From: a virus
Taxonomy: Duplodnaviria; Caudoviricetes
DNA: 64,000 nt
Reading direction: 5' to 3' (one strand)
Virus record (IMG/VR): IMGVR_UViG_3300047160_002455
Location: 1 to 64,000 of that record
Every line of letters begins with the position of its first letter. Within the stretch, counting starts at the first letter, position 1. Position numbers and translations under genes: made by a program. A model generated the notes under the pieces. That model searched no databases. It saw nothing but the letters and a program-made list of their open reading frames with translations, and was not told the origin of the DNA. Positions 1-17,712 of this stretch are shown piece by piece.

Positions 1-17
1 GCTCACCGCAGCACTGG

Positions 18-1568
18 ATGCGGTTACTGGCACCGGCAAAGGACACTTGGGAGGGAAGAGGACGGTACGACAGGACGCCACCGAAGTTACCGATACCGCC
101 TTTCAGACCAGCGCGGACTATCGCGGGCGCGGAGCAGTACGCTTGGAATCTGGGGGTGAATGCTACCTACACGACGCGCCCTTACGGGAGTAAGCGCGAG
201 AGCAAGAAAGACCTGTTCATTGCCAACACGGTCAATAGGGTGCTGGCAGAAGCAAAGGCGCGTGGCTGGGCGATCCCTAGAAACGTCGCTGTCACTACTA
301 CTGGCATCATGCCCCAAAGCGCGGTTGCCGGGTACGAGGAGCCGCATGACGATCATGTGGAGACGTTGTGGATCAACCGCGATAACGACAAGTGGGGCAA
401 GGATGGTGGCTCACTTGCGGAGAAATCCCATGCTAACCGTTGGATGGTAGCAGAAACCGTGCCTGAGTTGATCGTCCACGAGCTAGGTCACTGCAACCAT
501 TTGCATCAAGCGGGGTATGAGGACTACCACAAGTACGATGAATGGACAGACTATCTTGCGAAAGCACCGATTAGTCAGCTGCGCCGCGCCATTGCCGACG
601 TAGAGAGGAAGAGGCAGATCGCTGAGAAAGTCAGTCGTTATGCCAAAGCATCCCCTGGTGAGTTCGTAGCAGAGGTGTGGGTGGGACTGAGCAAGGGGAT
701 TAAGTACGACAAGGACATAATGGACCTGTACCATGAGATCAAGGGACCGGACCCCGGTAAAGTGAAAGTGGCAGCGAACGTGTTCTGTCCTACGGGGCAG
801 GGCGGCGGGGTTGATCCGAGTTGTGGTAAGAACGGTGCTGCCGTCGCTGCGCTAAAGTCACCTAGCGAACGGCAGGAAACGCTTGCCATGTACCGGGAAC
901 GTCACCTCAACGTCCCCGGTTACAAACCGGCAAAGACGTTAGAAGCGGCGGTACGTTACGCTAAGTCGCTTGGGTTGAAGGACATTAACTATCTGGCGCA
1001 CGGTTCGCGGCGCGGTTCTGATCCAGAATCGCAGAAGCTAGCACTGGACGCTGCGAATGTAGCGAACAAGGTGCTGACTTATGCCAAGCAACACCATTGG
1101 ACGCTGCCCAAAGGCATAAACCTCGTCCAGGGCGGGCGACCGTCTGATGAGATGGCTAACTACGACCCCAGAGATGACTCGCTGAATATAAACATGCCGA
1201 ACAAGGCATGGGGGGAGCACGGTGCAAACGCGCTGGAGAGGGCGGAGATGATTCTGTGGCTCGCGGTAGGATCACAGGAAGGGGTTATCTGTCATGAGCT
1301 AGGGCACTGCCAGTGGTCTCACAATCAACAGCTAAGAAAGCAGCTGATGGCTAGACAGTGGGTGACAAGCATCGACCCGTATGAGTATTCCGACCCGAAC
1401 CGTGAGATACTGGAGAGAGAAGATACAGCAAGGGAAGTCAGTCGCTATGCCAGTCAGAGACCAGGTGAGTTCGTAGCGGAGACATTTTCAGGTCTGGTAT
1501 TCCACAGGCACTACTCCGATGCCGTCATGAAGCTATATCACAGTCTGGGAGGTCAAGACCCAACATGA
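18..1568 (+). CDS. Head-associated (MuF-type effector) protein with two HEXXH zinc-metallopeptidase domains; probably 5'-partial
   Basis: VHELGH...SRYAKASPGEFVAE and CHELGH...SRYASQRPGEFVAE, separated by NVFCPTGQGGGVDPSC; frame is open back to the window edge. Confidence 0.75.
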   Translation: MRLLAPAKDTWEGRGRYDRTPPKLPIPPFRPARTIAGAEQYAWNLGVNATYTTRPYGSKRESKKDLFIANTVNRVLAEAKARGWAIPRNVAVTTTGIMPQSAVAGYEEPHDDHVETLWINRDNDKWGKDGGSLAEKSHANRWMVAETVPELIVHELGHCNHLHQAGYEDYHKYDEWTDYLAKAPISQLRRAIADVERKRQIAEKVSRYAKASPGEFVAEVWVGLSKGIKYDKDIMDLYHEIKGPDPGKVKVAANVFCPTGQGGGVDPSCGKNGAAVAALKSPSERQETLAMYRERHLNVPGYKPAKTLEAAVRYAKSLGLKDINYLAHGSRRGSDPESQKLALDAANVANKVLTYAKQHHWTLPKGINLVQGGRPSDEMANYDPRDDSLNINMPNKAWGEHGANALERAEMILWLAVGSQEGVICHELGHCQWSHNQQLRKQLMARQWVTSIDPYEYSDPNREILEREDTAREVSRYASQRPGEFVAETFSGLVFHRHYSDAVMKLYHSLGGQDPT

Positions 1569-3133
1569 TTAGGTTACCTATGTGCGCTTACTGCCAGCGC
1601 TTCGCGACACAGCGGCGCGACGGTGAGTTCTGTACTGCCTATCCAGACGGCACCGGCATTCCGCGCGAGATTCTGGATAGCAAGGTGGACCATCGCAAAC
1701 CCTATCCTGGGGATCATGGTTTGCAGTTCAAGCAGCGCAGCGACATGCCGGATTTTTTCGCGGGCGGGTGGACACCGGCTACGACACCAACGGAAAACCA
1801 CCTGTCGAATGAATGGACTCCTATTGGTGTCAACGTCTACTGTGCCACGGGACCGGGCGGCGGCAAAGATCCCACCTGCTCACCGGGGAAGTTTCACGAG
1901 ACTAGAATCTTCGGTGGTAAGGCGCGCGTGCGCGAGTTAGACCAGAGTTTGCCCAAGCTGGATGTGCCTGAACAGTGGAAGTCCGTACCGGGTCAGCAGC
2001 ACTTACCCTTCCCCGGTGGGCAAACGACGCAAGTGGCGCAGCGGGTTGTTTACCGCAAACTGAAGGCACGCGAACGCGCTGAGAAACTGGCGCAGATGAG
2101 TACGACCGCCAAGCAGAAGCGTGAAGAGAAACTTGCCCAACGGCGCGAGAAGGCACGTATCAAGCGCGAAGCTAGACCTCCGGAGGAAGCAGAGGCATCG
2201 CGAGTTAAGAGAGAGGCGCGCCGTGCTAAGTATAAAGCAGGACAGGAAGCGTTGAAACGGGTGGGTGGTGGGCAGGCACCGCCCACACCGCCACCGGCAG
2301 GAACCCATGAACAGGCGGGTACGCTCCCCGACAGTGACCAGCGCACGGAACTGGAACACCAGACGTTCAAGTCTCGGAAAGACCACGGGGGCGGTATCGA
2401 AAAGACGGAGACGGTTGTATTGGGAGATGGCACTAAGGGTCTATACAAACCAGAGTCTGGAGAGAACACGGACCCGGAAGGACGCCGCTTCATCCACGGT
2501 TACAAGTGGGCGCGAGAGGTTATGACTTCAGTAGCAGCGTCTCTCTTCGGTATGGATGATCTAGTGCCGGTGACCGTCGATCATGACGACGGGCACGGTG
2601 GGCACGGAGCGTTGCGTCGCTATGTGGACAATGCCGATGCTGCAGCAGACATGGGGATCGCGGCACAAATGATAGGCAAGATATTCGACGGTAAGAAGGA
2701 CTTGGCGCGGGCGGCTGCCTTTGACTTTGCCATAGGTAACGAGGACCGGCATACGGGCAACTGGTTGGTGACGAAAGGTACGGACCCCAAGCTGGTGCTA
2801 ATTGACCACGGTTACACTTTCCCGTCGCGTAACGAGAAAGAGTGGGGCAACTATATGATCGGGCACGAAGCTAAGGACTTGGAGATTCCAGAGGAAGCGC
2901 GGCACTGGATCGACAAGTGGTCCCAGGTGGAGAGGCACATGAAAGCACTTGGGTTCCGTAAGGTCGAAATTGAGGCAGCGCACGATAGAATCAAAGCGTT
3001 GTCGAACAAGAAGTACAAGAAGTTCAGTGACCTAAAGAACGTGTGGGATAACGGGCGCGGGTACAAAGCGGCAGCGGAAGTCGGTTACAGCACCGGCTAT
3101 AAACACAGAGGTTCCTCTGCTTTGAAAGCGTGA
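1565..3133 (+). CDS. Fusion: Cys-rich small module + linker tag + PI3/PI4-kinase-like (HipA/CtkA-like) domain
   Basis: N-terminal CAYC...CTAYPDGTGIPREI...DHRKPYPGDHGLQF; C-terminal GLYKP...REV...GNEDRHTGNWL...LIDHG kinase motifs. Confidence 0.75.
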   Translation: MIRLPMCAYCQRFATQRRDGEFCTAYPDGTGIPREILDSKVDHRKPYPGDHGLQFKQRSDMPDFFAGGWTPATTPTENHLSNEWTPIGVNVYCATGPGGGKDPTCSPGKFHETRIFGGKARVRELDQSLPKLDVPEQWKSVPGQQHLPFPGGQTTQVAQRVVYRKLKARERAEKLAQMSTTAKQKREEKLAQRREKARIKREARPPEEAEASRVKREARRAKYKAGQEALKRVGGGQAPPTPPPAGTHEQAGTLPDSDQRTELEHQTFKSRKDHGGGIEKTETVVLGDGTKGLYKPESGENTDPEGRRFIHGYKWAREVMTSVAASLFGMDDLVPVTVDHDDGHGGHGALRRYVDNADAAADMGIAAQMIGKIFDGKKDLARAAAFDFAIGNEDRHTGNWLVTKGTDPKLVLIDHGYTFPSRNEKEWGNYMIGHEAKDLEIPEEARHWIDKWSQVERHMKALGFRKVEIEAAHDRIKALSNKKYKKFSDLKNVWDNGRGYKAAAEVGYSTGYKHRGSSALKA

Positions 3134-3137
3134 TGAA

Positions 3138-4862
3138 ATGCCTACAATTGCGGTCGATGTTTATAGGCTGGGTAAGGATGCTGAGCCCGAAGTTGCAGGA
3201 ACAATCACCTGGAACGGCGCGGAGTTTGTCTGTTCACCAGCGGACAGTGACCTGCTACACCACATGCTCGGTGACGAAATTTTGGGCAACAGTGGACCGG
3301 TCACTGCCAAGGACGGCGCGGAGTTCATCAACAACCTTTGCCGCCAGTACCACGGTTCCTACATCTGGGTGTCGAAACCGCGCACGTCGGACGATGGAGG
3401 TTGGACACCGGTCGGCAACAGCGCGCCAGTGGGCAAGTCACCGAACAACGGATGGACGCCCATTGGGGTGAATGTTTACTGCCCTACTGGTAAAGGGGGC
3501 GGTAAAGACCCAACCTGCTCACCTGGGGGGCAGGCAGCGCTTGACACCCCATCAACAGCTCGCAAGCCGTGGGATGGAATGCCATCACCGGGGGTGATGG
3601 GATCGTCGGCAGGGAAAGGGGAACCTCGTGCGTCGGAACTGAAAGTGGTAGGGCAGACAACAGCGCTGGCGCAGGAACGTGCCAGGCTCGAACAGAAGGC
3701 ACGAGAAATTGCCGCCGCTGGGTGGGTTGCCCCAGGAGAAACAACGAAGCTGGCAGGGGAAGCGATTCATCTCAAGCAGAAGCAAGCTAAAGCTGCTGAG
3801 AAGGCGGCGGAGATGGGCGCAGCTACGAGGGCGCAGCATGAGGAGAAACTTGCCAAGCGGCGCGAGAAAGCGCTACTGAAGCGACAACAGAGAGGTCCAG
3901 AGGAGGCAGAAGCATCGCGAGTCAAAAGAGAAGCGCGACGTGTGAAGTACAAAGCACGGCAGGCAGCGCTAGAAAAGGCAGGTGGAGGAGAGGCAGTCCC
4001 ACCAGTACCGCGAGCACCGCGCCAGAAAAAGCAGCTGCAACCACCTCCAGCTGGGGGACATGACCAGGCAGGGACGCTCCCTGACACCCCGGAACGGACG
4101 GACCTGGAACATCAGGCATTCACCGATGTGAAGGTGAAACCAAAGGGCGGTATCGAGAAAACGGAAGATGTCAAACTCGGAGATGGTACGCAAGGTTTCT
4201 ACAAACCCGAAGACGGTGAGGACAAGAGAAAGGATACACGACGGTTTGTTCACGGTTACCACTGGGCAAGAGAGGTCATGTCCTCAGTGGCGGCATCGTT
4301 ATTCGGCATGGATGATATGGTGCCGGTCACCGTCGATCACGATGATGGACATGGCGGGCACGGTGCGCTTCGTCGCTGGATAGAACATGCTGACGTCGGT
4401 GCCAATAAGTATACCGATGCCGAGAAGTTTGACGGTGAGAAAGACGTGGCGCGAGCAGCTGCTTTTGATTTCGCTACTGGCAACACGGATCGACACGGTA
4501 GGAACTGGATGGTCAAGGATGGTACCGGCAAGTTAGTCTTGATTGACCACGGTCTGGGCTTCCCCTCCAGCAACACACCAGCATGGGGCAATGCTCAGAT
4601 CATGGAACACTGTAGGAAGATGAAGATTCCGGAGGAGTGCCGTCACTGGATCGACCAATGGGACAAGATGGAAAAGCACATGAAAGCGCTGGGGTTTCGA
4701 GACGTGGAAATCAAAGCGACACATGAAAGAGTCGCAGCGCTGGCAGACCCAAAGTACAAGAAGTTTGAAGACCTGAGGGGAGTGTGGGATACAGGTTATG
4801 GTTATCCAGGTCATGAAGCGGGCATGAGTCCGGCAGCACATTGGAAACGGCAAGCATGGTAA
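3138..4862 (+). CDS. Fusion: ~95-aa putative immunity module + linker tag + second PI3/PI4-kinase-like domain
   Basis: GFYKP...REV...GNTDRHGRNWM...LIDHG; clear paralog of 1565..3133; N-terminus homologous to 4872..5162. Confidence 0.75.
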   Translation: MPTIAVDVYRLGKDAEPEVAGTITWNGAEFVCSPADSDLLHHMLGDEILGNSGPVTAKDGAEFINNLCRQYHGSYIWVSKPRTSDDGGWTPVGNSAPVGKSPNNGWTPIGVNVYCPTGKGGGKDPTCSPGGQAALDTPSTARKPWDGMPSPGVMGSSAGKGEPRASELKVVGQTTALAQERARLEQKAREIAAAGWVAPGETTKLAGEAIHLKQKQAKAAEKAAEMGAATRAQHEEKLAKRREKALLKRQQRGPEEAEASRVKREARRVKYKARQAALEKAGGGEAVPPVPRAPRQKKQLQPPPAGGHDQAGTLPDTPERTDLEHQAFTDVKVKPKGGIEKTEDVKLGDGTQGFYKPEDGEDKRKDTRRFVHGYHWAREVMSSVAASLFGMDDMVPVTVDHDDGHGGHGALRRWIEHADVGANKYTDAEKFDGEKDVARAAAFDFATGNTDRHGRNWMVKDGTGKLVLIDHGLGFPSSNTPAWGNAQIMEHCRKMKIPEECRHWIDQWDKMEKHMKALGFRDVEIKATHERVAALADPKYKKFEDLRGVWDTGYGYPGHEAGMSPAAHWKRQAW

Positions 4863-4871
4863 GGAGGGTAT

Positions 4872-5162
4872 ATGCCTACCATCACGGTTGAAGTATGGGG
4901 TCGGAACAAGGTAATGGACCCCGTGCGCTTGGGGTCGATCACCTGGAACGGTAGCAAGTTCACCTGCGATCCCGACACTCGGTTGTTGCAGAGCATCGTC
5001 AACGACACGATCCTGGGGGAAGTCAACGGGCAGATGCAGAGTGTAACCGCGAACGACGGCGCGGTGTTCATCAACAGTCTGTGTCGCAACTACAACGGTT
5101 CCGCGCTGTGGGTGTCGGAACCGGTTGCGGACAACGAAGGCTGGACCCCGGTTGGCAAGTAG
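4872..5162 (+). CDS. Stand-alone putative immunity/partner protein for the upstream kinase
   Basis: Aligns with the N-terminus of 3138..4862 (ITWNG.F.C; VTA.DGA.FIN.LCR.Y.GS..WVS.P); SD aaggagg upstream. Confidence 0.6.
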   Translation: MPTITVEVWGRNKVMDPVRLGSITWNGSKFTCDPDTRLLQSIVNDTILGEVNGQMQSVTANDGAVFINSLCRNYNGSALWVSEPVADNEGWTPVGK

Positions 5163-5171
5163 GAGCACCTT

Positions 5172-5432
5172 ATGGGGAGTTCCACGGTGAACGGCAGTCT
5201 GACCCCGATTCAGCAGAAGATGCTTGATATGCTCAGCGACGGTGCGCCGCACAGTCGCGAGGAACTATGTACCTGCCTGTTCGATGATCTTGGGAACCCG
5301 ACCAACATCCACGCTCATCTCACCCTCATTCGGCAGTTCTGCCGCCCGCGCGGTGAGGACATTGTCAGCAACTATGACGGTCGCTGGACCTATCGACTGG
5401 TGCGCTTAATGGGCAACCCATATCGCGGATGA
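5172..5432 (+). CDS. Small winged-HTH-like protein
   Basis: LTPIQQKMLDMLSDGAPHSREEL...NIHAHLTLIRQ resembles an OmpR-type wHTH; SD aaggag. Confidence 0.5.
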   Translation: MGSSTVNGSLTPIQQKMLDMLSDGAPHSREELCTCLFDDLGNPTNIHAHLTLIRQFCRPRGEDIVSNYDGRWTYRLVRLMGNPYRG

Positions 5433-5451: not shown

Positions 5452-5478
5452 CATCTAACTATGGGTGAGAGTTAGATG
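5452..5478. promoter_or_regulatory. Inverted repeat CATCTAACT-N9-AGTTAGATG (operator or hairpin)
   Basis: Perfect 9-bp arms in the intergenic spacer upstream of 5502. Confidence 0.45.
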
Positions 5479-5501
5479 TGACTTGTAAAAAGGAGGAGCA
5501 C

Positions 5502-6074
5502 ATGCGACGGAAGATCGTGATTAAGAATCACACCCACTGGCGCACGGACCACATCCGTGCATTCATCCACCGCGCCGCTGACATGGTACTCGACCCGGAG
5601 CAGAAGCCACGACTGCACGCGACGGTGACCTACACCCGCGTGGCAGGGCAAGGTTGGGCGTCGGGTTGTGCCTGGGTGGGCGGTAACAGCTTCACCGTTC
5701 GTCTCGACCATACGGTGGTTGACAAGGTAGACTTTGCCGGTGTCATTGGTCACGAGATCGGGCACTGCAAGGGACTGCACCACCGCGATATGCGGGGTAA
5801 CGCTTACTACAAACGGGGCGGTAAGCACCGTGAGTTGTACGCTTGGGCAAAGGAACTGCCTTTGGAGAAGCGCGCCATCAAGGTCAAGGTGCCCGTCACC
5901 GGTGTTGCGCTTGTCGAGAAGAAACTGGAGCATGCTCAGAAGATGGCAGCGAAGTGGCAGGTTATGACCAAGCGTGCGCAAGCGCGCGCGAAGCGCTGGC
6001 AGCGCAAAGTCAAGTATCACGAAGCGCGCTTAGCACGACTCAAAGCTGCCGAAAACGTATCGACAAATAAGTAG
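5502..6074 (+). CDS. SprT-like/HEXXH metalloprotein with basic coiled-coil C-terminus
   Basis: GHEIGHCKGLHH; strong SD aaggagg before ATG 5502. Confidence 0.55.
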   Translation: MRRKIVIKNHTHWRTDHIRAFIHRAADMVLDPEQKPRLHATVTYTRVAGQGWASGCAWVGGNSFTVRLDHTVVDKVDFAGVIGHEIGHCKGLHHRDMRGNAYYKRGGKHRELYAWAKELPLEKRAIKVKVPVTGVALVEKKLEHAQKMAAKWQVMTKRAQARAKRWQRKVKYHEARLARLKAAENVSTNK

Positions 6075-6133: not shown

Positions 6134-9100
6134 GTGATAATTCCAGCAGGTATGGAGATTATCACAACCAACCTCAAAAGCGCGGGCGTCCGTCGTGCTA
6201 TTCGCAATGGACGCGAATACTACGTCTGCAGTGCGTCCATCATCAACCCTGGTGTCCTCGCGGGCAGCAAGGGCGCGCTCTACTATCCCCCCGATGAATG
6301 TCAGCGCAACGCTAGAGATTGGGAAGGGACACCGCTAGTCCTCTATCATCCGACTCGCAACGGGCAATACGTTTCGATTCGTGACGATCCTTCCGCAATT
6401 GATCGTCAGGGACTGGGGGAGTTCCTGAAACCGCGCTTCAAATCAAAGCTGGGCGGTGAAATGTGGTTCGACGCCCAGAAGGTTGCCAATGCCGACAAGT
6501 ACCTGGTCAAGAATGGCGTCGAACCCATCCTGCCGCGCTTGCGCAAAGGCATCCCGGTTGAACTGAGCACCGGACTGTTTACTGAGAACATACCAGCGGA
6601 ACAGGGCGCGATGTTCAACGGCAGACCGTACACGCACGTTGCCCGCAACTACCGCCCCGACCATATCGCGATCCTACCGAATCAGATTGGCGCGTGCATT
6701 CTACCGGGACAGGAGATACAGGGACGTATCACCAAGGCTTCAAAAGCCTGGTACACGGGGGAAGCCATTCGGATTGAGACTCTTTCTGGAGAACTTCTTT
6801 CCGTCACTCCGAATCACCCCATACTTACCGATATGGGGTTTGTTCCTGCCAGCGATCTCACAGAAGGTCAAAATCTTTTGCACTATGTCCGGGAAGACAA
6901 AGCCACTACCACCGATACGAACGAAAAGTATGCTCCAGCCTTGGCTGAGGATGTATTTGATGCGCTGGCGAGCCTCTCTACGCATGAGGAAGCTGTAAGG
7001 ACCAGAGCTACGACATTGGACTTCCACGGCGATGCGGGGTTCTTCCAAGGCGATGTCCAAATTGTAAGTCCCCAGAGCGCGCTGTCGAGTGGTAGTGTAC
7101 CCAAGACCGCGAAGAGATTCATACAAGGCGGTTTCGGTGGGAGAGGCAACTGTCAATCGTCTCTGTCTAGTCGCAGCCATACGCAACAGTTCACCAGGTT
7201 GGTGGACGCGACCGACGTTCGCCAAGTTAGCTTTGGCAGTGAATCTCTTACGCTGCTTGAACGTCAGCCCGGAGTACATGAGGCGAGAGGCGGAGGAAGC
7301 GTCTCGCGTGATACCGCGCTCCTTGAGCCAGGCGTAGATGACGCCCTGGTTGATACCCAATTCTCTCTTAATTTCATAAGCGTTTTTCCCAGCGCGGTAG
7401 GCTGCGACAACTTCTCGAACAAGTTGGGGTGGGAAGCGGGCTTCGGAAACCAACCTCTTACCGGATTTTGTGTATTCGGACCTGGAGCGGAACTGAACAT
7501 TTCTCTTCCTAAGACGGTCTCGAACCGTCGAGTTATGGAGGCAAAACTCTTTAGACAACTGCTTCATACTTTTCCCAGCAAGATAACCACGGACAAGATC
7601 GTCCACTTGGACAGATTTTTTCATAATGGTCCCGTATACGATTTTGAATCTTCGCTTGGATACATTATCGCACAGAAACTTCTCGTAAGCAACTGCTCCA
7701 TCAACGATGGTTGTGGAGTGCTGGTCAACGCACGAGGGGGCGACGGTGCAGCATGGTACCCCGTGGTGGGGAACGAAGCGCGGGACGTGCGCTTAGTGCC
7801 GGTTCAAAATGTTTGGACGGATGCAGCTAGGCAGGCATCTGCGGAAGCCCGCAGCGCTTCCAAAAAGGCACATGAGGCATCCGCGAAGATCGGTCACCGT
7901 ACCATCCTCGACCCCAGCTATGCCAGCACGGGGATGTCTGGACCATCTGACATCCACTACCATGCCGCCCACTTGCACATGGGCGCTGCTGCTGAACTGC
8001 TGAACGAAGCGAACAGAGACGATAACGCTGGTTACTTCGATAAGGCAAACATGAAGCGCGATGTTGCCCAGATGCACGAAGATGCTGCCTTGTCCAACTT
8101 CAACGCTGCACGAGAAATCGAGGGATCTGTCCATCGACCAAGTCAACCAAAGCTAGGTTGGCAGCAGAACCAACGAAACCCGACCGCCAATATGTGGTCG
8201 GAGGAAGCGCGTCAGGCAGCACTGGAGGCACGTCGCGCAAGCGCCACTGCCGGTGCCAAGTCCCGCGAAGCGGCTGCCTACCACGGCAGCTTCGAGGAAT
8301 CGGAGATGTACAAGGCAGGGCAGCGCGGTCAGAAAGCTGACTCCGTCAAGCAACATCTACAGGCAGCGGAGATGCACCGTATCGCTGCTGAAAAGCACGA
8401 GCGCACAGCGGACTATCTGGGCAGCGGCGATGCTGGTAGAGGGGAGCACTATCGCGCTGCCAAGTTGAACATGGACGCTGCCGATGCTCACGAGCGCGCC
8501 GCTGGGATCAAGAGCGGTGGCGGGATGCACGGTGGTGGAGGGTTCGGTGCCATGAATCCACAGGGACCGCCTAAACCAGTACAGGCACAGCTATCGCGCG
8601 GCTCCGGTGTTGCCGGTGAGTCTCTGGAAATGTCGCGTGAAGCAGCGCAGCGCGTCTCCAACCAGTGGCAGGCAATCCGCAATGTCTGGACTGAGGAAGC
8701 CCGTGCTGCCGCTGCCGCCTCGAAGCGTGCTAAAGCAATCAGTGACAAGCACCCGGAGCAATCCGAAGAATCAAAAAAGGCAGGAGAGAGGGCATTCAGT
8801 GATGCTAAGTATGCCGGTGGTAAGGGCGGACCGTACTTGCATATTCAAGCGCGGCAATCGCATAACAACGCTGCTGAGATAGCGGAGCGCGAAGGACACC
8901 CCGACCTTGCTGCTGCCCATCGTGAAGCGGGTATTGCCCACGAGACCGCTAGACGGCAGACGGAGGCAGTTCAGTACGTCCACGGCAAAGCGGTGGACCC
9001 GTATGTCAAACCAACCAGCAACGATAAGAAGCAACCGTCTGAGGAACTGGACATCTCCAGTGAGAAGGCATGTCAGATACTGCACGATAAGGAAGTGCGC

Positions 9101-11578
9101 GGGCATCCGCTGACGGACGATCAACGCAAGATGTTTGGCGCGAAGTGCAGTGAATCGCGCAACCAGTGGCACCCGGTAAACAACCAGAGTGACCAGCAGA
9201 GCGCTCCGGCGCAGGTCGTGTCCGGCAGTCAGTCCGCGCTTGCGAGAACGTACCTATCGGCAGGCAGCCGCAACCGCCACCCCGCATCGGGCAAGTTTCA
9301 GAAGGGCAACGCGGGCAGTGGCAATGGTCCAGCGCACGATGCTGCCAAGCAAGGTAAGAACGCTGGGGACTGTGGCTGGGAACCGATTCAGGCAAACTTT
9401 CGGTCACCCGCGTCTCTGTTCAACTTCAACCCATCGGACACAGCATCGTTGCAAGGGGATGCTAAGGACACGTCCGATTCGACCTCGAACTATCGTAGTC
9501 CGGCATCCCTGTTCAACTTCAGCCCATCGGATACGGCAGAAGTCTCTGGAAATAAGGGTGACGGAAGCGTGTTTGGAGACGATCAATTTCTGGACTCGAC
9601 ACCTGGCGGACCCGGCAGCGGCGGTCGCGATGTAGTCGCCAAGCATACGCACAATAAGGACCGATCCCCTGCCGCGATGATGATGCGCCTGGATAAGCAA
9701 GCAGATCCCGGTCGCACCTATGCCCATGATGACACCTACGGGGATAGCAAGACCATGAACAACTTCGTCAACAACTACTGGACGGAGGAAGCTAGGGAAG
9801 CAGCAGCACAGGCGCGACGTGCGAAACTTGGAGGACTGGCAAAGAAAGGTTGGAGCGCACTCAAGACTGCTGGCAACAAGATTGCGTCTACTACTAAGGA
9901 CGTTTATGAGGAAATCGGCGGTCTCGGAAGTGACATCCTCGACCACGGAATCGGCGCGATTCTGGATAACGCAAGCGCTATCCGTCACGCTGCTTCAGAG
10001 GCAGCTGCCTGGAATGCCAACCCGGAGGGCGGCAACTACGACAAGACAGCAACGCAGCGCATCTTCGGTACTCCGAACAAACCCGGTTACGACGGTCGCG
10101 ATTTGTGCGAAGGCATCCACCAGAGTGCTCACCGACTCGCGGGTGACCAGGATGACGATGATGACATTGACGCGGACGATCACCACGTAGGGCAGCTGTT
10201 CGGTTGGTTCGATCCGCGCCAGCAGTGGCAACCTCAGGAGGTGGTTGGTTGGGCGGATACCAAGGGTGGCAGGGAAATCACCATTGAGAGGGAGGCAGGG
10301 GGCGGTCCTGCAAAAGTCAGCAACTGTCATTGCGGTGGAACGTGCAAGAGATGCAGTGACGTTGCCAATCAGGACGATGATGATGACTACGACGATGACT
10401 GTGATGACGATGAACGGGATGATGAGGGCAACTGCCCAGACGATGATGATAACGATGATACCTACAACGCATGGAGCGAAGCAGCGCGGCGGGCAGCTAT
10501 CGAGGCGCGAACGGCATCGCAGAAGGCACACGACGCTACGGTCAAGATCGGTCACGCGGCACAGGGAGTATCCGGTAACGCCCTCAAGTGGGCGGATGAG
10601 GCAGTGCATGGTCACGGTTGGGCGCAGGCAACAGAGGGGGCTGCCAACGCACACATGCAAGCACACGATGCCCTACGGAGGACAGCGGACCAGAAAGCTG
10701 CGATGGGTGACATGCTTGGTGCTAGGGGAGACGTGCGCGCGGCAGGGTTGCACGCGGACGCTGCCAGCGCTCACCGCAGAGCGCTTGTCGGTGTTACCGG
10801 TAATGTCGTGAGAATGACTGCGATTGCCTTGAACGCGGGAGGTTGCGGTTGTGACTGCGACGGTTGCAAGGACTGCAAAGGCAAGATGACGGGTAACGCT
10901 TGGACCGAGGAAGCACGGGCAGCGGCTGCGGAAGTGCGCCGCGCTCATGGGGCTGTAAAAGGCACGAAGCCCGTACCCGGTTGGGCAAAGGGCAGAACGT
11001 CCAAGATGAAGCCCGGTCTGTTCGGCGCGGACGATGAAGCGGAAGGTCACAACGAGCAAGGGTGGAAACCCAAGGCACCGGTGGACACGCGCGGCAAGCA
11101 GGGCGGTTGGACGGAGAAACCGGAGGCACCGAGACAGCAGTGGACGGGGCAACCATCGGAACGCAAGGGCGGCGGTGGTGGTTGGACTGCTGAAACGGAA
11201 GGACCGCGTCCGAGTTGGCATCCCGTCAAGCAGCCGAAAGTGGGCATGTACAACCAGGATCTAGCTGGACCTAGCGTGCCCGCGCCCCCGTCTCCGCCCC
11301 CGCGCGGGGTTATCAGCGCACCCAGCAAGAAAAAGAAAAACACGATGAACCGGGAATGGTCCAGCAAGAAGCGCGAGGAGCATCCCGCTAAGGATTTCGC
11401 GGGTCCGGATCGGTCGTTCCCGATTGAGACCCAGGAGGATGTGGACGCTGCCATCCGTTCCATCGGTCGCACGAAGCACGATCCCGACGTAGTCAAGGCT
11501 GGCATCAAACGGATTGCCAAGCGCAAGGGATTGGATCTACCGCCCTCACTAGCGGAGGACGGTGACGATGGTGACTAA
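6134..11578 (+). CDS. DUF2213-like capsid maturation protease (intein-containing) fused to a long multi-module polyprotein
   Basis: ELSTGLF...YRPDHIAILPNQIGA|CSINDGCG protease motifs; position before scaffold/MCP; C-terminal DFAGPDRSFPI module. Confidence 0.8.
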   Translation: MIIPAGMEIITTNLKSAGVRRAIRNGREYYVCSASIINPGVLAGSKGALYYPPDECQRNARDWEGTPLVLYHPTRNGQYVSIRDDPSAIDRQGLGEFLKPRFKSKLGGEMWFDAQKVANADKYLVKNGVEPILPRLRKGIPVELSTGLFTENIPAEQGAMFNGRPYTHVARNYRPDHIAILPNQIGACILPGQEIQGRITKASKAWYTGEAIRIETLSGELLSVTPNHPILTDMGFVPASDLTEGQNLLHYVREDKATTTDTNEKYAPALAEDVFDALASLSTHEEAVRTRATTLDFHGDAGFFQGDVQIVSPQSALSSGSVPKTAKRFIQGGFGGRGNCQSSLSSRSHTQQFTRLVDATDVRQVSFGSESLTLLERQPGVHEARGGGSVSRDTALLEPGVDDALVDTQFSLNFISVFPSAVGCDNFSNKLGWEAGFGNQPLTGFCVFGPGAELNISLPKTVSNRRVMEAKLFRQLLHTFPSKITTDKIVHLDRFFHNGPVYDFESSLGYIIAQKLLVSNCSINDGCGVLVNARGGDGAAWYPVVGNEARDVRLVPVQNVWTDAARQASAEARSASKKAHEASAKIGHRTILDPSYASTGMSGPSDIHYHAAHLHMGAAAELLNEANRDDNAGYFDKANMKRDVAQMHEDAALSNFNAAREIEGSVHRPSQPKLGWQQNQRNPTANMWSEEARQAALEARRASATAGAKSREAAAYHGSFEESEMYKAGQRGQKADSVKQHLQAAEMHRIAAEKHERTADYLGSGDAGRGEHYRAAKLNMDAADAHERAAGIKSGGGMHGGGGFGAMNPQGPPKPVQAQLSRGSGVAGESLEMSREAAQRVSNQWQAIRNVWTEEARAAAAASKRAKAISDKHPEQSEESKKAGERAFSDAKYAGGKGGPYLHIQARQSHNNAAEIAEREGHPDLAAAHREAGIAHETARRQTEAVQYVHGKAVDPYVKPTSNDKKQPSEELDISSEKACQILHDKEVRGHPLTDDQRKMFGAKCSESRNQWHPVNNQSDQQSAPAQVVSGSQSALARTYLSAGSRNRHPASGKFQKGNAGSGNGPAHDAAKQGKNAGDCGWEPIQANFRSPASLFNFNPSDTASLQGDAKDTSDSTSNYRSPASLFNFSPSDTAEVSGNKGDGSVFGDDQFLDSTPGGPGSGGRDVVAKHTHNKDRSPAAMMMRLDKQADPGRTYAHDDTYGDSKTMNNFVNNYWTEEAREAAAQARRAKLGGLAKKGWSALKTAGNKIASTTKDVYEEIGGLGSDILDHGIGAILDNASAIRHAASEAAAWNANPEGGNYDKTATQRIFGTPNKPGYDGRDLCEGIHQSAHRLAGDQDDDDDIDADDHHVGQLFGWFDPRQQWQPQEVVGWADTKGGREITIEREAGGGPAKVSNCHCGGTCKRCSDVANQDDDDDYDDDCDDDERDDEGNCPDDDDNDDTYNAWSEAARRAAIEARTASQKAHDATVKIGHAAQGVSGNALKWADEAVHGHGWAQATEGAANAHMQAHDALRRTADQKAAMGDMLGARGDVRAAGLHADAASAHRRALVGVTGNVVRMTAIALNAGGCGCDCDGCKDCKGKMTGNAWTEEARAAAAEVRRAHGAVKGTKPVPGWAKGRTSKMKPGLFGADDEAEGHNEQGWKPKAPVDTRGKQGGWTEKPEAPRQQWTGQPSERKGGGGGWTAETEGPRPSWHPVKQPKVGMYNQDLAGPSVPAPPSPPPRGVISAPSKKKKNTMNREWSSKKREEHPAKDFAGPDRSFPIETQEDVDAAIRSIGRTKHDPDVVKAGIKRIAKRKGLDLPPSLAEDGDDGD
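6740..7624 (-). CDS. Putative homing endonuclease: two HTH repeats + Vsr/DUF559-like nuclease, antisense inside the intein
   Basis: YLAGKSMKQLSKEF...TVRDRL and YRAGKNAYEIKRELG...VIYAWL; SPTETALYESL...QRALGTYNLDIA...IAVEV...ILSQGWSILFV. Confidence 0.75.
   Translation of the reverse strand: MKKSVQVDDLVRGYLAGKSMKQLSKEFCLHNSTVRDRLRKRNVQFRSRSEYTKSGKRLVSEARFPPQLVREVVAAYRAGKNAYEIKRELGINQGVIYAWLKERGITRDASSASRLMYSGLTFKQRKRFTAKANLANVGRVHQPGELLRMAATRQRRLTVASPTETALYESLRGLGYTTTRQRALGTYNLDIALEEPRIAVEVQCRSSGPYSFLMRREARQRIKYILSQGWSILFVRIGGSGFVFPDIVQKILTFCEIAGRNKPHIGKYGVIRSDGKKFSRKSLNPNGFPRVPGF
7664..7692 (-). promoter_or_regulatory. Sigma70-like promoter TTGCTT-N17-GATAAT with TGn extension, upstream of the antisense endonuclease
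   Basis: -35 at 7692-7687, -10 at 7669-7664, 17-nt spacer, ~40 nt upstream of ATG 7624. Confidence 0.55.
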
Positions 11579-13382: not shown

Positions 13383-14579
13383 ATGTTCACTGACTTCATT
13401 CTGAACGGGCAAGCCCACGGTTCCGTGGGCGAGCACCTGGCAGGTTGCCGCTTCGACCCCGGTTTGCTGCGCCCGTACATCGACCGCTCCAATCAGCGCT
13501 GCGTCACGATCAATTCGGGACGCACGGATTCCAGCGGGAAACCCATTTACGAGAAGCGACTGGTCGCAGAGATGATTAACAACGGTGTGAGTTCACCGGT
13601 GTTCAATGCTACGTCGCTGCGCAAGGAAGAGTGGATCGAACTCGATAAGGTCGTCATTCGTGAAGCTCGTTTCCGGCTCCGCGCTTGGGCAGACCTTGCT
13701 GCCGCCAATACGTTTGGTGGTTTCAACGGTATGTCCAAGACGATCCTCGAATACGAGTCCATGAGTGACCCCGGTGAGGCAATCGTAGACATGGATGGTC
13801 TTTCGGAAGGTCGTACTGACCGCCCGAAGTTCCAGCTTGAAGGTTTGCCTCTGCCGATCACCCACTCGGACTTCTATTTCAGCGCGCGCCAGCTGGCGGC
13901 ATCGCGTAACAGTGGTACCCCGCTGGATACGACGATGGCAGAAGCGGCTGGGCGTCGTGTGGCTGAATCCATCGAGAAGGTTCTCATCGGTGTTGACACC
14001 GGTGTTACCTACGGTGGGCAGAACACGGCAACCTCCTACGGACGCACCGCGCAGGTCTACGGTTACCTGAACTTCCCGCAGCGCTTGACCAAGCACAACC
14101 TCAACACCCCGACAGGCAACAATGCCTCGTCTACGTTGTCGGACGTGCTGGCAATGCGCAACCAGTTGTACAACAACAAATTTTACGGTCCCTTCATGCT
14201 TTACCACTCGAATGATTGGGACACGTTCCTTGATAATGACTATATCCTCACGGGCGGTAACGTAGCGACCCAGACGCTGCGCGAACGTCTGAAGTCGATT
14301 GACGGGATCATCGACGTGCGCCGTCTCGACTTCTTGACCTCGACCATCCCCGTCTCGACGGATGCAGCGCAGATCCTAACCGCTAACCCATTCACCCTCA
14401 TCATGGTCCAGATGACCAGCGATGTGTGCCGCGCTATCAATGGTATGGACATCACGACGGTGCAGTGGGAATCGGTCGGTGGGATGCGTCTGAACTTCAA
14501 AGTCATGGCAATCCAGGTGCCACAGATTCGCGCTACGTTCGCTGGCAACAGCGGACTCCTGGTCGGGACCACCACGTAA
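13383..14579 (+). CDS. Major capsid protein (HK97 fold, Linocin-M18/encapsulin-like clade)
   Basis: NATSLRKEEWIELD...PLPITHSDF...RQLAASR...PLDTTMAEAAGRRVAE...GPFMLY...FKVMAIQVPQIR. Confidence 0.9.
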   Translation: MFTDFILNGQAHGSVGEHLAGCRFDPGLLRPYIDRSNQRCVTINSGRTDSSGKPIYEKRLVAEMINNGVSSPVFNATSLRKEEWIELDKVVIREARFRLRAWADLAAANTFGGFNGMSKTILEYESMSDPGEAIVDMDGLSEGRTDRPKFQLEGLPLPITHSDFYFSARQLAASRNSGTPLDTTMAEAAGRRVAESIEKVLIGVDTGVTYGGQNTATSYGRTAQVYGYLNFPQRLTKHNLNTPTGNNASSTLSDVLAMRNQLYNNKFYGPFMLYHSNDWDTFLDNDYILTGGNVATQTLRERLKSIDGIIDVRRLDFLTSTIPVSTDAAQILTANPFTLIMVQMTSDVCRAINGMDITTVQWESVGGMRLNFKVMAIQVPQIRATFAGNSGLLVGTTT

Positions 14580-16743: not shown

Positions 16744-16954
16744 CTGTAACAACAGACTGCAGTACCCGATTGTGGCGCACGGCAACCGCCGCCCTAGCGA
16801 TGCGGAGCGTGCCCACAAAGGGTACAAGCAGCGCAGACATGAAATGAACTGGCATAACCGCGAGCGGTCGAGTGACGATCAAATCGACGCTTACCTGAGA
16901 CGCAAGCTGCTCAAGCAGCACGCAGCACAGAAGCCATCGGTGGTGGAGGGTTGA
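16736..16954 (+). CDS. Small hypothetical protein
   Basis: Fills the operon gap, overlapping both neighbours. Confidence 0.4.
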   Translation: MSSCNNRLQYPIVAHGNRRPSDAERAHKGYKQRRHEMNWHNRERSSDDQIDAYLRRKLLKQHAAQKPSVVEG

Positions 16955-16959
16955 TATGT

Positions 16960-17712
16960 ATGACCTTCAGCCTAGAGACCGCGATCTATACGGCAGCGCT
17001 GTGCCGCGTCGCGGCGGACGGGGATCAAGACGGGTTTGCGGACCTGTTTGAGAAGTACACGATCAACAGCCGGTCGGCTGGACAGATGTGGGCTGTAACG
17101 GGAACGATTGCCAACACCGAAAGTCTATCCGGCGTGCAAGCCGTAATCTTTCGCGGGACGGCAACGCTTGGTGATTGGTTGGATGATGAGGAGTCCGCGC
17201 TTGCCTACTTCCCGGAATTTGACGGCAAGGTGCATACCGGGTTCTACCGCTGTTTCGACGAAGTGCGGGACTGGTTGCAAAGTAGGTTGCTGAAAACCAA
17301 GCTGGTGCTCATAACCGGGCACAGTTTGGGCGGCGCGATGGTGACCTTGGCAGCGCAGTGGTTATGGAGTCGCGACTATATGGTGCTGCCGACGTACACG
17401 TTCGGCAGTCCTAAAGTCGGCAATGAGACCTTCACCACTAACTACGCTCCAGCGCAGTACCGCGTGGTCAACGATGTGGATATTGTGACCTACCTACCGC
17501 GCATCAGTGGTTACTGCCATGTAGGTGAGGAATACCACCTGCCTTATAGCACCGTGGGACTGGGGCGGCGGTTAGGGTTGATGGCATCGCATCTGTGGTA
17601 TGGACCGGGCAAGCTGTTTGTGGACAGCGTCAAGTGCCATCCGATTAGCGCGTACATGGAAGCGCTCAAACGTGAATGGGAAGCGGATCATGCTGAAACT
17701 GGAACCGCTTGA
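16960..17712 (+). CDS. Class 3 lipase (alpha/beta hydrolase)
   Basis: IFRGT, VHTGFY, TGHSLGGA, TFGSPKVGN, VVNDVDIVTYLP, C-terminal His. Confidence 0.9.
   Translation: MTFSLETAIYTAALCRVAADGDQDGFADLFEKYTINSRSAGQMWAVTGTIANTESLSGVQAVIFRGTATLGDWLDDEESALAYFPEFDGKVHTGFYRCFDEVRDWLQSRLLKTKLVLITGHSLGGAMVTLAAQWLWSRDYMVLPTYTFGSPKVGNETFTTNYAPAQYRVVNDVDIVTYLPRISGYCHVGEEYHLPYSTVGLGRRLGLMASHLWYGPGKLFVDSVKCHPISAYMEALKREWEADHAETGTA

Follow-up and report, generated by a model that had tools for sequence, protein, structure and literature searches.

A conserved pairing of a type II PI4-kinase-like domain with a small downstream partner module in a phage MuF/polyvalent effector array

Four co-oriented genes occupy bases 3-5162 of the tailed-phage contig IMGVR_UViG_3300047160_002455 (Caudoviricetes), of which the first 64 kb, referred to here as the window, were analysed (total length 77,047 bp). 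Two of these genes end in a kinase domain that resembles type II phosphatidylinositol 4-kinases (PI4KII), and each kinase is followed, across a stop codon, by a small domain designated module I. Comparison of sequences from this and related loci indicates that the kinase and module I form a real and conserved unit of phage MuF/polyvalent effector arrays. An immunity or antitoxin role of module I toward the preceding kinase is predicted, with a probability judged slightly better than even. An initial annotation of the window had described the four genes as a daisy chain in which each gene opens with the partner of the previous gene's enzyme and then carries a new enzyme.

The domain order claimed in that annotation for genes 2, 3 and 4 was found in its entirety. 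Gene 2 (1565..3133; on the plus strand, as are genes 1, 3 and 4) begins with a Cys-rich module of 65 amino acids (1565-1759; phrog_33375, E 2.8e-8), which is followed by GGWTP and NEWTPIG motifs (W at 1769 and 1814, respectively), a Cys-bracketed tag (1832-1879, in which Ala replaces Pro; detected with a less strict protein pattern), a charged coil and a C-terminal PI4KII-like kinase domain (2300-3109). Gene 3 (3138..4862) begins with module I (3147-3392) and continues through GWTPVG (3399-3416) and GWTPIG (3450-3467) motifs, a Cys tag (3471-3518) and a charged coil to a second kinase domain (4053-4847). The products of genes 2 and 3 share 53% identity across 479 amino acids and differ at their N-termini. 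Gene 4 (4872..5162) encodes a free-standing module I (96 amino acids, module I at 4881-5132) that is 52% identical to residues 1-93 of the gene 3 product and ends, as had been noted, in NEGWTPVGK (GWTPVGK at 5139-5159). Both kinase domains end 4-7 amino acids short of the stop codon. Gene 3 starts 4 nucleotides past the gene 2 stop codon with no clear Shine-Dalgarno sequence, and gene 4, which follows the TAA stop codon of gene 3, has a strong ribosome-binding site of its own (AAGGAGGG). Module I and the kinase are each present exactly twice in the 77-kb genome, module I standing each time right after a kinase, as claimed. The GWTP-type motifs (five) and Cys tags (three) are likewise confined to this region of the genome. 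An origin of the repeats by recent gene conversion was considered and rejected; their DNA is only 66-75% identical and there is therefore no sign of recent exchange.

Module I belongs to no named family and constitutes a genuine family of its own. A profile built from the two module I sequences of the window matched 72 proteins at E≤1e-3 among 1.84 billion representatives, two of which were repetitive multi-stretch proteins and were treated as probably spurious. The family so defined is about 85 amino acids long, with approximately 70 representatives at 50% identity. Most of these proteins consist of 80-105 amino acids while seven are fusions of 263-1247 amino acids, in all of which module I is N-terminal. 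The fusion partners of module I comprise ART, an ATLF-like zincin, topoisomerase IB, InPase with sigma70, KTSC, a P-loop motif recognized by eye and the kinase. In some of the fusion proteins (P0032 and P0051), module I is directly followed by a short helical motif (FADWLDENG) like that of TIGR02996-type repeats of Planctomycetes, which may hint at the host group. Close relatives of the window genes were not encountered: no near-length relative of gene 4 was found in a word-based search, no close relative of gene 3 was found in IMG/VR, and GenBank phages gave neither a DNA match nor a tblastn match for module I or the kinase.

The association of module I with a preceding kinase was evident from the neighbourhoods of 16 close-clade kinase loci, reached by searches that started from both module I and the kinase; a locus of Brevibacillus phage Jenst was covered as well. 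The occurrence of module I apart from kinases in homologues had been named in the initial annotation as grounds for refutation, and the link was not refuted by searches run in either direction. Look-ups that started from module I revealed a PI3/4K-like kinase directly upstream in six of six cases. These were a kinase before an 81-amino-acid module I (L074), a kinase with a weak C39 match before module I plus ART (L077), a kinase fragment before module I plus zincin (L079), a helicase (SNF2/ResIII) plus kinase before module I plus InPase and sigma (L095), KTSC plus kinase before module I plus a P-loop motif read by eye (P0028 locus) and a kinase before module I plus KTSC (L096). Similarly, in loci that were reached from close-clade kinases, module I was the next open reading frame (ORF) in seven of ten, two had none and one was unreadable for lack of DNA. 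In three of the seven (L081, L084 and L089) module I followed a MuF plus kinase protein, while in the others it followed Portal_Mu plus kinase (L082), ART-PolyVal plus kinase (L086), a kinase, with module I fused to 1200 amino acids that have no assigned function (L085), or a portal protein (Phage_portal) plus 2H and kinase, with module I fused to topoisomerase IB (L087). At the unreadable locus (P0081) the next ORF after the kinase encodes 106 amino acids, for which the DNA needed for comparison with module I was lacking. More generally, a C-terminal effector followed by a small ORF (<150 amino acids) was present in the window and at 13 of 15 other loci with readable DNA.

The kinase-to-module I junction is conserved amid surroundings that are freely shuffled. 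The domains found before the kinase are MuF, Portal_Mu, Phage_portal plus 2H, ART-PolyVal, a weak C39 match, SNF2/ResIII, KTSC, the Cys-rich module and module I, while module I is followed by nothing, ART, ATLF-like zincin, topoisomerase IB, InPase plus sigma70, KTSC, the P-loop motif or a kinase. Fusions of MuF with the kinase were seen at L081, L084, L089 and P0084; genes 2 and 3 themselves are without MuF. At positive junctions with readable DNA, the kinase domain ended 2-58 amino acids before the stop codon and module I lay within approximately 35 amino acids of the start of the next ORF. A stop codon separated the two at every junction read, despite the free fusion of domains in these arrays. 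The conservation of this junction, together with the consistent absence of any fusion of the kinase to the module I that follows it, points to a functional pair that must stay separable. Identity across loci was 31-62% for the kinase (median 40%) and had a median of 30% for module I, with a minimum of 19%; the pairs are old and deeply diverged. A correlation of kinase and module I distances (mirror-tree, r 0.52, Mantel p ~8e-4) is expected for linked genes, is inflated by the window paralogues and was not used as evidence of interaction. Module I was not detected near distant kinase matches (L090-L094). One of these, L093, is a bacterial reading frame of more than 3057 amino acids (Allokutzneria oryzae NZ_JBHLZU010000027.1, 227769-236941) that carries this PI4KII-like kinase domain at least eight times in tandem, with no module I nearby.

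Two other explanations of the junction were considered. The N-terminal position of module I in every fusion and the general conservation of synteny in phage head modules would be expected if module I were a generic leader or packaging signal, functionally unrelated to the kinase and placed after it by inherited gene order. This is quite improbable in view of the upstream kinase in every locus reached from module I despite entirely different carriers and downstream genes, the persistence of the pairing at identities down to 31% for the kinase and 19% for module I, the free-standing copies, which lead nothing, and the occurrence of module I in none of 73 tag-bearing loci without this kinase. Expression of genes 2-4 as one polyprotein through stop-codon read-through or frameshifting is less probable still, to the point of being nearly negligible. 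Genes 3 and 4 do lie in the same frame, one TAA and three codons apart, and the corresponding genes are likewise in frame at L074, L095 and L096. However, in-frame arrangements account for 4 of 14 junctions, which is about the chance rate, and most of the junctions overlap in another frame. This frequency and the strong Shine-Dalgarno sequence of gene 4 therefore indicate separate polypeptides.

The further claim of the initial annotation, that the partner module can be fused to a following effector, was also sustained. Among the proteins that repeatedly occur fused behind module I are ART, zincin, topoisomerase IB, InPase-sigma, KTSC and the P-loop protein recognized by eye, and the daisy-chain architecture is therefore real.

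Assignment of the kinase was supported by both sequence and fold. The two kinase domains scored 31.4 and 34.0 bits with PI3_PI4_kinase (PF00454), above the gathering cut-off of 27.1. The catalytic Lys and the DRHxxNW and LVLID[HN]G motifs are fully conserved across six homologues, and the gene 2 copy (LVLIDHG) is intact. The best fold match of the kinase model was PI4KII-alpha (Z 20.4 over 233 amino acids, root-mean-square deviation (rmsd) 3.1), followed by CtkA, Fam20, HipT and HipA. Type II PI4-kinases (PDB 4pla and 4hnd, Z 20.4 and 19.8, respectively) also gave the best PDB sequence match (E 1e-6), which extends across the catalytic and Mg-binding loops, although identity is 18-19%. In a bacterium, such a kinase would be more likely to target a protein or small molecule than phosphatidylinositol. 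Matches to HipT (Z 12.0) and HipA (Z 11.3 and 10.4) were all below those to PI4KII, CtkA and Fam20. No HipA_C match was found at E≤0.1, and the kinases were not placed in the HipA/HipT family.

The AlphaFold2 model of module I from gene 4 is a confident one (predicted local distance difference test (pLDDT) 93, predicted template modelling score (pTM) 0.81) except for a disordered GWTPVGK tail. The top two matches of this model among 48,161 PDB representatives were Escherichia coli HipS and 7vkb_B, both with Z 4.3 (rmsd 3.5-3.6 over 66-67 amino acids). The latter entry is titled 'a bacterial kinase complex' and is presumably Legionella HipS. Residues 8-109 and 2-107 of HipA, i.e., N-subdomain 1, ranked sixth and seventh, and the ten nearest neighbours of an ESM Atlas model of module I included clusters of the HipA family and of HIRAN domains, the latter of which may be HipN-like. 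Searches of other kinds gave little. Matches of module I in BFVD were marginal at most (e.g., Bacillus phage G gp16, E 0.06), a module I profile search of PDB sequences was negative and Couple_hipA had no match in the whole phage genome although control genomes did match. The likeness of module I to HipS and HipA N-subdomain 1 is thus a suggestive lead, one that fits a kinase-binding neutralizer.

HipS neutralizes HipT by direct binding (PMC10627512), and an analogous arrangement is envisaged here. The proteins of the array would be MuF/polyvalent effectors that are packaged in the capsid and enter the host along with the DNA, namely a giant MuF protein with two zincin-like domains and the products of two paralogous genes that end in a PI4KII-like kinase with intact catalytic motifs. 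Each kinase would pair with a module I that either constitutes or opens the separate polypeptide encoded next. Module I would bind the kinase and hold it in check inside the producing cell, as HipS does with HipT, and the partner of one kinase would become the head of the next effector (kinase 1 / module I-kinase 2 / module I). A kinase partner can head the next effector because C-terminal fusions to module I are tolerated and a standard linker (GWTP plus tag) is used across the arrays.

Several points weigh against an antitoxin role. The structural likeness to HipS is weak, with a Z of 4.3 that lies below the usual best background Z of 7-8, and Foldseek comparison of module I with the PDB gave nothing at E≤0.001, a second look at the match list showing immunoglobulin-like noise. 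Couple_hipA (PF13657) was matched by none of 48 module I sequences at E≤10, the kinase is nearer to PI4KII than to Hip kinases, and the HipA subdomain equivalent to module I is an integral, non-inhibitory part of the kinase. When kinase 2 and the following module I were folded as one chain (4050-5159, with TAA read as Q; pLDDT 79.9, pTM 0.66), the model was uninformative on docking. Module I was not detectable at L083 (divergent MuF plus kinase) or L088 (kinase internal), and neighbours were covered for 6 of the approximately 70 module I representatives. In addition, immunity is of no obvious use to a lytic phage, and module I fused to delivered effectors would travel along with them.

Alternatively, module I would bind the kinase as a docking or regulatory subunit instead of an inhibitor, either as an activating or substrate-selecting lid, like HipA N-subdomain 1, or as a coupler that attaches the next effector non-covalently to a capsid-anchored kinase so that the train is co-packaged and co-ejected. 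The evidence of adjacency is the same for this explanation as for an antitoxin, matches to HipA N-subdomain 1 are almost as good as those to HipS, module I is often fused to effectors of the delivered type (ART, topoisomerase IB, sigma factor) and the kinase always forms the free C-terminus of carriers anchored through MuF or a portal. Most module I proteins, however, are free-standing, 80-100 amino acids long and without cargo, and an obligatory stop codon would be needless for a constitutive kinase subunit. A docking role is regarded as doubtful, if the most serious competitor of the antitoxin reading. A combination of both functions is rather unlikely. In this version, module I would silence the capsid-anchored kinase and also hitch its own C-terminal cargo (second kinase, ART, topoisomerase or sigma factor), giving effector 'trains' that are co-packaged and co-ejected and to which wagons are added by recombination at the GWTP/Cys-tag linkers.

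The peptidase part of the annotated chain lies in gene 1 (3..1568), which encodes the C-terminal 521 amino acids of a giant polyvalent protein of the MuF kind, truncated where the contig begins; its reading frame stays open up to contig base 3. Two peptidase domains had been assigned to a gene at 18-1568, and two paralogous HExxH domains of approximately 240 amino acids, both with HELGHC, are indeed present (zincin-like domain A at ~18-767 and domain B at ~840-1565; 34% identical, E 2e-35). Their assignment as peptidases is based on the HExxH motif and a downstream Glu, with weak family matches to WLM (E 0.01) and phrog_28013 (E 6e-4). The limits of the gene, in contrast, were not those of a whole gene. 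In two sister assemblies of the same phage (88 and 125 kb), in which genes 2-4 are identical, gene 2 is preceded by a 3177-amino-acid Phage_Mu_F (PF04233) protein that ends 12 nucleotides before an alternative gene 2 start. The window thus keeps only the tail, or C-terminal sixth, of this protein, and no Phage_Mu_F domain is found within it. Closure of the gene 1 frame by circularization was rejected, as an in-frame stop codon occurs 29 codons upstream across the contig ends, which do not overlap. CheckV rates the record 100% complete, and it is labelled 'linear', yet it lacks about 8 kb of MuF gene sequence ahead of base 1. Because the sister assemblies carry this missing sequence, the contig is incomplete at the gene 1 end.

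Whether the chain extends to the peptidases was judged from the Cys-rich module of gene 2. It follows zincin-like domain B in the window, as would be expected if every gene opened with the immunity module for the previous enzyme and the Cys-rich module conferred immunity to a zincin-like peptidase. The homologue in phage Jenst, a free-standing small gene, lies two genes downstream of a weakly zincin-like virion protein, the C-terminus of which resembles the gene 1 domain weakly (E 5.8e-5 within the loci searched). This copy, however, is located in a block of DNA-metabolism genes and is not adjacent to the virion protein. At L022 and L065, a small ORF related to the Cys-rich module occurs immediately before a protein with tag and HExxH, and no peptidase is encoded upstream. 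Among the loci searched, these weak homologues were the only ones. The proposed pairing of peptidase with Cys-rich module is thus not a conserved one, and an immunity chain that extends through every gene is very unlikely. Since the Cys-rich module has no conserved tie to a preceding peptidase, the initial annotation is not supported as a general rule for every gene of the chain; it holds for the step from kinase to module I.

The Cys-bracketed tag that joins the two zincin-like domains of gene 1 (NVFCPTGQGGGVDPSC, 777..824, plus strand) recurs far beyond this locus. An exact 39-base degenerate pattern matched the genome twice, at 786-824 in gene 1 and 3480-3518 in gene 3, with none expected in 100 shuffles; in gene 2 the corresponding stretch is 1841-1879. 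A back-translated pattern search of IMG/VR yielded 149 instances across 73 stretches, with a maximum of eight in one frame (L064, 2968 amino acids). The consensus is N-[AV]-F-C-P-T-G-x-G-G-G-[VI]-D-[PN]-[ST]-C-[SG]-P, after which comes a Gly/Ser-rich run. The segments that it delimits include Phage_Mu_F (17), ART-PolyVal (7) and ADPrib_exo_Tox (7), as well as topoisomerase I, 2H, HNH, sigma70, Zeta toxin, RelA_SpoT, InPase and Acb1. In single-domain proteins the tag is also placed 10-40 amino acids from the N-terminus. The tag is a generic, widespread domain-boundary marker or linker of viral polyvalent proteins. It could serve as a cleavage site, a capsid-targeting signal or a metal-binding or disulfide loop. 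No paper describing the motif was found in a literature search, and the words 'linker' and 'cysteine' do not occur in the text of Iyer et al. (2017; PMC5512222). A different Cys-bracketed linker, P-C-K-Q-G-x(6-7)-G-C-[IV]-P, was noted at L074 (6837-7100) and in P0048 (residues ~225-300), where it has an equivalent position before kinase or ART domains in another phage lineage. From this second type, Cys-bracketed loops may be a general kind of linker in such arrays.

The wider setting of the genes is that of the virion. The major capsid gene is located at 13383-14579, and genes 1-4 are therefore a head-module effector array. The locus has several unrelated effector domains, a virion context and zincin-like metallopeptidases, as polyvalent proteins do. 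A free-standing zincin-like gene with HEIGHC (5478..6074, plus strand; weak Peptidase_M48 and Reprolysin_3 matches around HExxH), similar to gene 1 in the motif region, possibly belongs to the same effector or processing set. Between this gene and gene 4 is a gene for 86 amino acids (5172-5432) whose product has, by eye, the look of a small winged-helix DNA-binding protein, with no family match in Pfam or PHROGs. Further downstream are a 1814-amino-acid 'head protein' (6134-11578; phrog_15127 and phrog_760, no Pfam match) and, among structural genes just past the capsid gene, a class 3 lipase gene (16951-17712; Lipase_3, E 1.9e-24).

The kinase-module I unit is related to three known kinds of system, i.e., MuF toxin-immunity pairs, polyvalent proteins and Hip-type kinase-HipS pairs. 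Genes for MuF toxins are usually followed by a small ORF that is taken to encode immunity (Jamet et al., 2017; PMC5576092). These polymorphic toxins share with the present loci a MuF carrier, a variable C-terminal effector and a small ORF immediately after it, and the MuF plus kinase proteins of L081, L084 and L089, each followed by a module I of 83-95 amino acids, fit this layout exactly. In contrast with MuF toxins, the carriers here can also be portal, ART or helicase polyvalent proteins, and the small ORF belongs to one conserved family instead of a diverse set and is often fused to a further effector. The word 'kinase' was not found in the text of Jamet et al. (2017). Polyvalent proteins, as described by Iyer et al. 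(2017), likewise combine many effector domains in a polypeptide, among which zincin-like metallopeptidases are the commonest and kinases, ARTs, InPase, 2H and MuF or portal fusions also occur; tag-delimited segments carry the same repertoire. In both, small cassette-like ORFs lie beside the main gene, and such ORFs are found near kinase-bearing polyvalent proteins in particular. Searches of that paper's text found no reference to a partner or immunity domain dedicated to an effector. Its kinase family is described as being of the serine/threonine/tyrosine type without a C-lobe, and may be distinct from the PI4KII-like one.

In the hipJS and hipIN systems, a HipS-like gene is located downstream of the kinase, HipN consists of a HipS-like domain plus a second domain, and the HipS-like N-domain of HipN has been proposed to restrain HipI (PMC8262856). 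The position of the partner gene is the same here, and the fused layout of HipN resembles that of module I and its cargo. HipBST, hipJS and hipIN pair a kinase that is broadly a structural neighbour of the present one (Z 10-12) with a partner of approximately 100 amino acids, whose fold is the best PDB match of module I. The differences are that there is no detectable sequence relation to Couple_hipA, that the structural match is weak (Z 4.3), that the kinase is nearer to type II PI4-kinases (Z 20), that a HipB-type regulator is absent and that a virion effector array takes the place of a chromosomal toxin-antitoxin operon. Orphan toxin-immunity cassettes of contact-dependent inhibition (CDI) and Rhs systems, to which PMC5512222 also alludes, consist of tandem toxin-partner units after the main gene, with a conserved pre-toxin junction motif. 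The present array has tandem units as well, and GWTP plus the Cys tag could serve recombination as such a junction motif, whereas the downstream 'orphan' here is fused in frame to the preceding partner domain.

Effectors that phages deliver from the virion have mostly been catalogued domain by domain, and little is known of how they are restrained in the producing cell, sorted to the capsid and diversified. The locus and its relatives define an enzyme-partner pair, composed of a PI4KII-like kinase and a domain of approximately 85 amino acids, and an architecture, met with repeatedly, whereby the partner of an effector opens the effector that follows, while a widespread Cys-bracketed linker marks the domain boundaries of polyvalent proteins. 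If module I is an inhibitor, the pair would link MuF/polyvalent effectors to the logic of Hip-type kinase toxin-antitoxin systems and would provide a handle on the host target of the kinase.

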